Positions 32,035 through 32,740 of a stretch of DNA of 49,858 nt are shown piece after piece. The DNA is from a virus. Under the pieces are notes generated by a model. The model had not been told where the DNA came from and did no database searches. It saw only the letters and a program-made list of their open reading frames with translations. The position numbers and the translations under genes were made by a program. How positions within the stretch are numbered: position 1 is the first letter of the stretch; each line of letters opens with the position of its first letter. The stretch lies in UHGV virus genome UHGV-0134932, one strand, 5' to 3'.

Positions 32035-32142
32035 TTACTGTTTCCTGAGTGCTTCTATGACGCCAGCAATACCGCCTACAACTATGCCAGCAATGACAAC
32101 GAGAACAATTGGATGCTTGTCAGCAAAATCCCAGAAGCCCAT
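32035..32142 (-). CDS. 35-aa single-TM membrane peptide (tciC-like position)
   Basis: MGFWDFADKHPIVLVVIAGIVVGGIAGVIEALRKQ; start overlaps the stop of the upstream small gene (TGATG). Confidence 0.4.
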   Translation of the reverse strand: MGFWDFADKHPIVLVVIAGIVVGGIAGVIEALRKQ

Positions 32143-32306
32143 CACTGATCCTTAGAAGCTGTTTTTAATATCGGCCATACCAATGTTACAGCTACTGCCA
32201 CCAACGCCCCGTCCGATAAAACTGACAGGATTGTGCTGGTGAAATCCACCAGCACGGACAGCAAGAGAAAACCAATGGCGATTGCGATACGTGCCTTGCT
32301 TGCCAT
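32142..32306 (-). CDS. 54-aa membrane protein (tciB-like position)
   Basis: MASKARIAIAIGFLLLSVLVDFTSTILSVLSDGALVAVAVTLVWPILKTASKDQ; start overlaps the TerB gene stop (TAATG). Confidence 0.4.
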   Translation of the reverse strand: MASKARIAIAIGFLLLSVLVDFTSTILSVLSDGALVAVAVTLVWPILKTASKDQ

Positions 32307-32740
32307 TACAGATAATCTTCCACACGAAGACCTAAACGACGGCCTACTTCTTCCAGTACTTTGTGTTCTGCTGGCTCGATTTCACCGTCCGCTTCTGCAA
32401 TTGTCAGCATGTTAACGAATACTTCTTCCGCTTCTTTTGGATCGTTTTTGATATCTTCAATTTCGCGAAGGATATTCATGCGACCAACACGGAAGCCAGC
32501 TTCCAGTTGCTCGGTAAAGCGGGTAATTGTTGCAGTAATTTCGTTACCAAAATGACTAAGACGCGGATTAGAGCGGACAAGCTGATCAAGTTTCGCTGTT
32601 TCTTCTTTTTCGATTTCACCATCAGCGGCAGACACCAACAAACAGCCACCGATGATGGCCTCCATCAGATCGCGATTCTCAACTTTTTTCAGCTCTACTT
32701 TTGCAGAAGCGACTTTCTTGCCGAACAATTTACCGAACAT
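32306..32740 (-). CDS. tciA: TerB-family (tellurite resistance-like) protein
   Basis: 144 aa with the paired acidic helices typical of TerB (DGEIEKEE...DGEIEPAEHK). Confidence 0.7.
   Translation of the reverse strand: MFGKLFGKKVASAKVELKKVENRDLMEAIIGGCLLVSAADGEIEKEETAKLDQLVRSNPRLSHFGNEITATITRFTEQLEAGFRVGRMNILREIEDIKNDPKEAEEVFVNMLTIAEADGEIEPAEHKVLEEVGRRLGLRVEDYL

Follow-up and report, generated by a model that had tools for sequence, protein, structure and literature searches.

A stretch of 49,858 nucleotides of the UHGV virus genome UHGV-0134932 (the whole of which we call the window) carries on its minus strand a gene for a TerB-family protein, which is followed by two tiny open reading frames (ORFs) of 54 and 35 codons. 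This raises the question whether the two ORFs encode real proteins that work together with TerB and, if so, what such a module may do for the phage. The best overall explanation is that the window derives from a phage-plasmid of the P1/P7 type, and that the locus is the known terB(tciA)-tciB-tciC cassette, whose three members are real protein genes that are coupled in translation. We regard this as very probable.

A 1-kb stretch spanning the locus shares 99.6% identity with phage P7. The P7 genes are named terB, upf69.4 and upf69.6; a signal peptide is predicted for upf69.4, and tRNA-Ile and ban come next. By gene order and coordinates in the P1 and P7 records, the cassette is collinear with tciA-tciB-tciC-trnI-ban of P1. 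The genes of P7 (terB-upf69.4-upf69.6; AF503408) and P1 (tciA-tciB-tciC; AF234172, in the annotation of Lobocka et al. 2004) are the same, have the same overlaps and occupy the same slot behind Op(ban), the C1 operator of the ban operon. In the Punavirus backbone, this slot lies between tRNA-Thr and tRNA-Ile(CAU)/ban. An initial annotation of the window, made from the DNA letters alone, had guessed that the genes are similar to tciA/B/C. The comparison bears this out, as TerB, TciB and TciC are 100%, 98% and 100% identical to their P7 counterparts. Compared with P1, TciB is 85% and TciC 100% identical, but TciA shares only 31% identity with the TerB of the window. The GenBank entries of P1 and P7 have listed all three genes since the early 2000s; the cassette is already known, and in this respect the finding adds little.

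The three genes are linked by one-base overlaps. The terB stop codon TAA (32308-32306) shares one base with the tciB ATG (32306-32304), forming TAATG, and the tciB stop codon TGA (32144-32142) shares one base with the tciC ATG (32142-32140), forming TGATG. The tciC start is preceded by AAGGA 6 nucleotides upstream, and an alternative in-frame GTG one codon earlier would yield a protein of 36 residues. The tciC stop codon TAA (32037-32035) is separated by a gap of 3 nucleotides from the 5' end of the tRNA, after which ban follows. Thus, both the chain of overlapping stop and start codons and its direct run into tRNA-Ile and ban are confirmed as initially described. The further remark that the ORF track had missed the two small genes is plausible, because both fall below the 60-residue default of an ORF lister, and tciC is not found in the RefSeq/PLSDB gene tables that were sampled.

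The assignment of the terB product is solid. It matches Pfam TerB (PF05099) with 54.3 bits against a cutoff of 24.4 (E=2e-14; profile positions 2-113 of 118) and phrog_632 with E=1.9e-63. Residues 17-138 align with residues 22-144 of the K. pneumoniae TerB structure (2JXU_A; E=5.3e-7). The protein has two acidic motifs of the form ADGEIExxE at about residues 39-48 and 116-125, which read AADGEIEKEE and EADGEIEPAE in the translation. Both acidic DG motifs are retained in P1 TciA and the TerB of the window, despite the 31% identity of the two proteins. The paired D-G-x5-E motifs constitute the proposed metal site of TerB. Compared with D6, terB has a ratio of non-synonymous to synonymous differences (pN/pS) of 0.05, indicating strong purifying selection.

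The tciB product is a member of Pfam DUF3927 (PF13064; 92.4 bits against a threshold of 25, E=1.7e-26) and of phrog_1470 (E=2.6e-23). The gene is intact in P1, P7, SJ46 and D6, with 67-98% amino-acid identity (67% in D6) and a pN/pS of 0.33-0.43 in those comparisons that hold more than four differences. D21-F22-T23, D32-G33 and P45 are invariant across seven phage homologues; a word-indexed search with TciB returned 13 close relatives and added no diversity. Residues 7-47 of the protein are hydrophobic, with basic residues at both ends and with maxima at 7-20 and 33-47 that are split by the invariant DFT(S/G)...DG. Both small proteins had initially been described as a single hydrophobic helix. 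By hydropathy this holds for TciC, which has one uncharged segment of 19 residues. It is uncertain for TciB, because its hydrophobic stretch has two maxima and measures 41 residues, which is roughly twice a bilayer. AlphaFold2 places residues 2-53 of TciB in one helix of 52 residues (predicted local distance difference test score, pLDDT, 89). This model was computed without membrane or partner and is not relied on here. With two hydropathy maxima on one side and one modelled helix on the other, a hairpin is probably at least as likely for TciB as a single-pass helix.

The tciC product falls into phrog_23152 (E=3.4e-27); family matches of this strength, as also seen for TerB and DUF3927, go well beyond what chance ORFs would give. 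Its uncharged core is preceded by an acidic and aromatic N-terminus and followed by a basic C-terminus. Each of the 64 IMG/VR loci keeps the ORF open, with 35 residues in 63 of them and 34 in the remaining one. By tblastn it is matched in 278 PLSDB plasmids, mainly as two alleles, one with 100% identity (154 records) and one with 74% (120 records). Phage D6 contains a 36-codon tciC-like ORF that is unannotated (about 2640-2753 on the minus strand of the retrieved stretch L003; MDFWTYIDKNPGWSLLFLLVIVYGVEQVAKNLRRRK). At 31% identity, it keeps the TGATG overlap, the N-terminal FWxxxDKxP motif, the hydrophobic core and the basic tail, and it is likewise followed by a tRNA. The initial annotation had named loss of frame in related elements as the observation that would speak against the small ORFs. 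No frame-disrupted tciB or tciC was found, and both are in frame in P1, P7, SJ46 and D6 as well as in the 64 IMG/VR loci and the 278 plasmids. With a value of 0.67 over 13 differences, the pN/pS of tciC is weak; the frame, length, start overlap and Shine-Dalgarno sequence kept across the alleles are the stronger argument for a coding function. Automatic annotation still drops this 35-residue protein, which is missing from the PGAP/PLSDB gene tables of the P1-like plasmids sampled as well as from the D6 record.

A lone TciC-like ORF of 35 residues (46% identical, starting MTFWDFADKH...) was also observed at 1501-1608 (+) of L062, a high-GC 5-kb viral contig from IMG/VR. No TerB or DUF3927 gene lies nearby; next comes another small ORF with a hydrophobic stretch, and then a 240-residue ORF. 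Because this ORF occurs without these neighbours, TciC may represent its own family of small membrane proteins.

How far is the cassette conserved as a unit? DUF3927 genes are found in several other phage lineages. A TerB gene directly upstream of a DUF3927 gene, overlapping or abutting it, is present in the SSU5-like phage Cyrano, the virulent N4-like phage Pollock and the lambdoid phage LMessi. In LMessi, the pair is located between Q and the holin gene. The pair also extends to prophages of Enterobacterales: among the genome loci of Enterobacterales and Aeromonadaceae, 10 out of 13 contain it, and the upstream partner of DUF3927 scores as Pfam TerB in eight of the nine cases tested. None of the pairs in Cyrano, Pollock, LMessi or the bacterial loci examined is followed by a tciC-like third ORF. 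Apart from the divergent lone ORF in the high-GC contig, tciC is seen only in elements of the P1/SJ46/D6 type. Phage 434 has a DUF3927 gene without TerB. Since TerB adjoins DUF3927 in other phages and genomes that lack a tciC-like ORF, the core is a two-gene pair. Judged from these loci, the widely conserved unit is TerB plus DUF3927, and tciC is an add-on that is nearly confined to the P1/D6 group. The initial notion of a three-component membrane module is supported with two qualifications: three coupled genes are present, but the conserved core has two components, and the link to the membrane is deduced from hydropathy and the reported behaviour of TerB.

The surroundings of the cassette suggest when it may be expressed. 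The Op(ban) site matches the Pban operator that the P1 and P7 records assign to C1, and both of them describe C1 control of the ban operon. In agreement with them, Op(ban) would control the operon that holds the cassette. This supports the initial placement of the genes within the operon of the replicative helicase. Downstream of Op(ban), the same strand contains a terminator-like hairpin, tRNA-Asn, tRNA-Thr, the region antisense to plp and upl, a structured leader, the cassette, tRNA-Ile and ban. On the minus strand between Op(ban) and ban, a scan with the sigma-70 consensus revealed no promoter-like site ahead of terB. The number of terminator-like sites between Op(ban) and ban is not above that of shuffled sequence (3 found versus 3.0 expected), and one of them lies inside terB. 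A preprint reports that transcripts of tciA and of tciB/C are detected during infection with P1vir.

Two features of this transcription unit deserve mention. A strong terminator-like hairpin is located at 34098-34117 (-), about 170 nucleotides downstream of Op(ban), and consists of GCCCATCTTCGGGTGGGC followed by seven T residues. To arrive at the tRNAs, the tci genes and ban, transcription must read through it. The hairpin falls into a stretch that is collinear with the dicF-like region of P1; Rfam DicF gives no match there at E<=1. Further downstream, the 3' end of plp (+) overlaps tRNA-Thr (-) by 30 nucleotides (33472-33501), and upl and plp are antisense to the transcript of the ban operon.

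The leader directly upstream of terB scores 43.0 bits against Rfam STnc100 (RF02076; E=2.6e-8, model positions 31-147 of 206), where the gathering score is 47. By this measure, it is a homologue of STnc100 but not a curated member. It is also about 81% identical over 124 nucleotides to the lambdoid spacer between DicF (76.7 bits) and dicB. The same leader is found upstream of tciA in P1 and D6, and the copies reach STnc100 scores between 33 and 43 bits. We considered whether the leader could be DicF itself and rejected this, as Rfam DicF does not match and the leader corresponds to the spacer downstream of DicF. Given the identity with this spacer, the tci cassette sits behind a leader of the dicB type in P1, P7 and D6.

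What could such a module do? We tentatively propose that TciB, together with TciC where present, anchors TerB on the cytoplasmic side of the inner membrane, where it would guard or condition the phage-producing cell once C1 repression is lifted; this is a possible mechanism rather than a probable one. Here, the one-base overlaps of stop and start codons would lead to a fixed ratio of the three products. TciB, accompanied by TciC in P1-type phages, would reside in the inner membrane and tether the soluble protein with the TerB domain to its cytoplasmic side. TerB would bind metal via its two acidic DGxxxxxE motifs. Lying behind Op(ban), the genes would be made when C1 repression is lifted, and not in the quiescent lysogen. 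From the fixed ratio, the anchoring, the metal binding and the timing, we infer that the module may condition or guard the membrane while the phage develops; the threats could be pore-forming colicins, superinfecting phages or membrane-depolarising abortive-infection effectors, among others. Tellurite resistance of lysogens would not be expected. In addition, cleavage by RNase P at the 5' end of the tRNA, 3 nucleotides past the tciC stop, would separate the tci message from that of ban.

Several observations favour this mechanism, namely the coupled translation, the conservation of the TerB-DUF3927 pair and its carriage by virulent phages, the control by the repressor, reports on TerB at the membrane, and the replacement of the cassette by an SPFH protein in sister phages. 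TerB has been reported to be membrane-peripheral, and a role in membrane surveillance has been proposed in the Bunzi, Shango and Dionysus systems. For the cassette itself, the attribute 'membrane-associated' is deduced from the hydropathy of TciB and TciC and from this knowledge of TerB.

Other observations weigh against the mechanism. The tci name stems from homology only. TerB alleles and TciB types reassort freely, so that there is no signal of co-evolution for a specific contact. The topology of TciB is split between the single AlphaFold2 helix and the two hydropathy maxima and thus uncertain. None of the PADLOC models matches any of the three proteins (the best hit, at E=0.0086, is an unrelated candidate). 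Finally, CRISPR interference (CRISPRi) knock-down of tciA, tciB or tciC left plaque formation of P1 unimpaired, and in a survey of P1-like phage-plasmids, tciABC is one of eight hypervariable regions, with nearly half of one subgroup being devoid of the cassette. As about half of this P1 subgroup does without tciABC, any benefit of the cassette must be conditional. NCBIfam yielded nothing useful for the three proteins, and the literature searched contains no published test of tellurite, colicin or phage resistance conferred by the cassette.

The phage-plasmids RCS47 and Ro157c2YLVW illustrate what can take the place of tciABC. Both lack the cassette, and the same slot holds a 275-residue protein that is annotated as 'putative serine protease'. 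This protein is an SPFH/Band-7 lipoprotein (Pfam Band_7, E=9.7e-31; lipobox LTGC). The annotation of Ro157c2YLVW places a 78-residue ORF, which has two hydrophobic segments, immediately upstream of the SPFH gene. Among the PLSDB plasmids, about 117 encode a P7-type TerB with at least 95% identity and about 190 encode the SPFH protein with at least 95% identity. The RCS47-type cassette resembles tci in that it occupies the slot between tRNA-Thr and tRNA-Ile(CAU) and represents a membrane-associated accessory pair, composed of a scaffold protein and a small ORF whose two segments are hydrophobic. In contrast to tci, it has the unrelated Band_7 fold and encodes a lipoprotein outside the cytoplasm, whereas TerB is cytoplasmic.

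If these lines are drawn together, TerB and DUF3927 (plus TciC in P1-type phages) could form a widespread lytic-phase phage module, in which a metal-binding TerB sensor is anchored at the inner membrane and protects the infected cell from attacks on its membrane, for instance by superinfecting phages, pore-forming colicins or abortive-infection pores. The module would be unrelated to tellurite. Like the SPFH lipoprotein, which can stand in its place, it would belong to a set of membrane cargoes that replace one another at a hotspot of the ban operon. This wider proposal is more doubtful still than the anchoring mechanism.

Different explanations for the cassette have to be considered. In a classical lysogenic conversion, the cassette would render the lysogen resistant to tellurite and/or pore-forming colicins, similar to terZABCDEF of IncHI2 plasmids. 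The ter cluster of R478 indeed combines tellurite resistance, phage inhibition and colicin resistance, the membership of the window protein in the TerB family is solid, and the P1 and P7 annotations are named accordingly. However, terB is the sole representative of the ter cluster here, as no terZ, A, C, D or E is found between dmt and ban. Moreover, C1-repressed Pban precedes the genes, for which no separate promoter-like site was detected, and virulent N4-like phages, which form no lysogens, have this pair as well. This renders lysogenic conversion improbable. No better supported, in our estimate, is the idea that division of the host is blocked during phage development by the small membrane proteins, alone or jointly with TerB, in the manner of the lambdoid DicB and Kil. 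It draws on the homology of the leader with the dicF-dicB spacer, which puts the cassette at the position of lambdoid dicB, on the dicF-like region annotated in the same operon of the P1 record, and on the P1 name, which includes 'inhibition of cell division'. Yet the leader homology bears on RNA regulation or ancestry and not on the function of the proteins, and the DUF3927 genes of LMessi and 434 lie downstream of Q in the late region, which is not the dicB position. The general family scans assigned none of the three proteins to such a family; a direct comparison with DicB or Kil was not part of them.

A more modest alternative concerns the third gene only. Here, terB and tciB would be functional, and the 35-codon 'tciC' would be a spacer before the tRNA that is open by chance. 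The weak pN/pS, the lack of tciC in the TerB-DUF3927 pairs of other phage lineages and the fact that PGAP does not call the gene would all be compatible with this. A chance ORF is hard to reconcile with a frame that is open in every IMG/VR locus and matched in so many plasmids, or with three alleles, down to 31% identity, that all preserve a length of 35-36 residues, the start overlap, FWxxxDKxP, the hydrophobic core and the basic C-terminus. The well-placed Shine-Dalgarno sequence and the PHROG family of its own also argue against it, and we consider a non-coding tciC very unlikely, even less likely than lysogenic conversion or a division inhibitor. The reading as three real protein genes thus remains the preferred one.

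How does the module compare with known TerB systems? The TerB of K. pneumoniae, which is part of the terZABCDEF tellurite cluster (PDB 2JXU), is a single-domain protein of similar length that aligns with window TerB over nearly its full extent (E=5e-7) and shares both acidic motifs of the DGxxxxxE type. Unlike its counterpart, window TerB lacks the partners TerZ, A, C, D and E; the genes coupled to it encode the 54-residue DUF3927 protein and the 35-residue transmembrane protein, and it is phage-borne and controlled by a repressor. In SngA of Shango, BnzA of Bunzi and DinB of Dionysus, a TerB domain is likewise found beside membrane proteins, and it is there that a surveillance role was proposed. 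These systems differ from the cassette, which has no helicase/ATPase or pore-forming toxin as partner, neighbours tRNAs and ban, matches no PADLOC model and is encoded by phages, including virulent ones, and not in defence islands.

The window is identical to neither P1 nor P7 but is a mosaic of both. The segment 32276-32865 is of the P7 type and comprises approximately the first ten codons of tciB, the whole of terB and about 125 nucleotides upstream of it. From 32866 onward, the upl-plp region is of the P1 type; the compared part (32866-35901) contains upl at 32932-33123 (+) and plp at 33124-33501 (+). Across the mosaic stretch, the best overall match is the laboratory P1 isolate OP279344. 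One of the P1/P7 junctions falls within tciB, near codon 10. We considered whether it reflects co-evolution between the TerB allele and the TciB N-terminus and rejected this: across loci, TerB proteins of the P1 and the P7 type occur with similar TciB types, so that the junction is a recombination scar. We also observed a 25-nucleotide direct repeat, GTAGATTGGGATATGA[A/C]CCCGTTAC, at 32920-32944 and about 33199-33223, on either side of the upl region. In P7, a single copy of the repeat is aligned and most of the intervening DNA is absent, a state consistent with a repeat-mediated deletion.

The tRNA gene that follows tciC is labelled Met by ARAGORN. Identical copies are annotated as tRNA-Ile by PGAP, and the gene is 88.6-89.9% identical to chromosomal tRNA-Ile genes, which are found in all 5,426 E. 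coli genomes. On both grounds, the label tRNA-Ile holds. Judged by its sequence, this CAU tRNA has a body similar to ileX/ileY and not that of an elongator or initiator tRNA-Met, and is of the tRNA-Ile2 type, whose anticodon would be lysidine-modified.

Table. Positions of the cassette, its neighbours in the ban operon and related features; L numbers denote retrieved stretches, all other positions refer to the window.
Feature	Position	Strand	Description
terB (tciA position)	32306-32740	-	144 residues, single-domain TerB protein, P7 allele type; GAGGGA Shine-Dalgarno upstream
tciB (P7 upf69.4)	32142-32306	-	54 residues, DUF3927 membrane protein
tciC (P7 upf69.6)	32035-32142	-	35 residues, one predicted transmembrane segment
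tRNA-Ile(CAU), ileX/ileY-like	31956-32031	-	ARAGORN anticodon CAT; Rfam tRNA 64.7 bits; trnI in the P1 record
ban, DnaB-type replicative helicase, same operon	30305-31675	-	ORF; ~99% identical to the P7/P1 ban region
tRNA-Thr(UGU) and tRNA-Asn(GUU), upstream in the same transcription unit	33472-33625	-	ARAGORN; Rfam tRNA 72.9 and 74.5 bits; order as in P1/P7
Structured 5' leader, directly upstream of terB	32778-32893	-	116 nucleotides, Rfam STnc100-like
Bivalent C1 operator Op(ban), 3' end of dmt	34280-34307	both	17-mer ATTGCTCTAATAAATTT, perfect at 34291-34307 (-); copy with two mismatches at 34280-34296 (+)
Other STnc100-like copies	L023/L024 ~1494-1648; L002 3866-3985; L003 (D6) 3388-3508	-	
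SPFH slot	L089 4160-4987; L090 4160-5204	-	equivalent of window 32035-32740

Pairs of TerB and DUF3927 span temperate as well as virulent phages of Enterobacterales, and TerB domains have recently been found in several anti-phage systems. The P1 cassette could therefore reveal the role of a minimal TerB module at the membrane.

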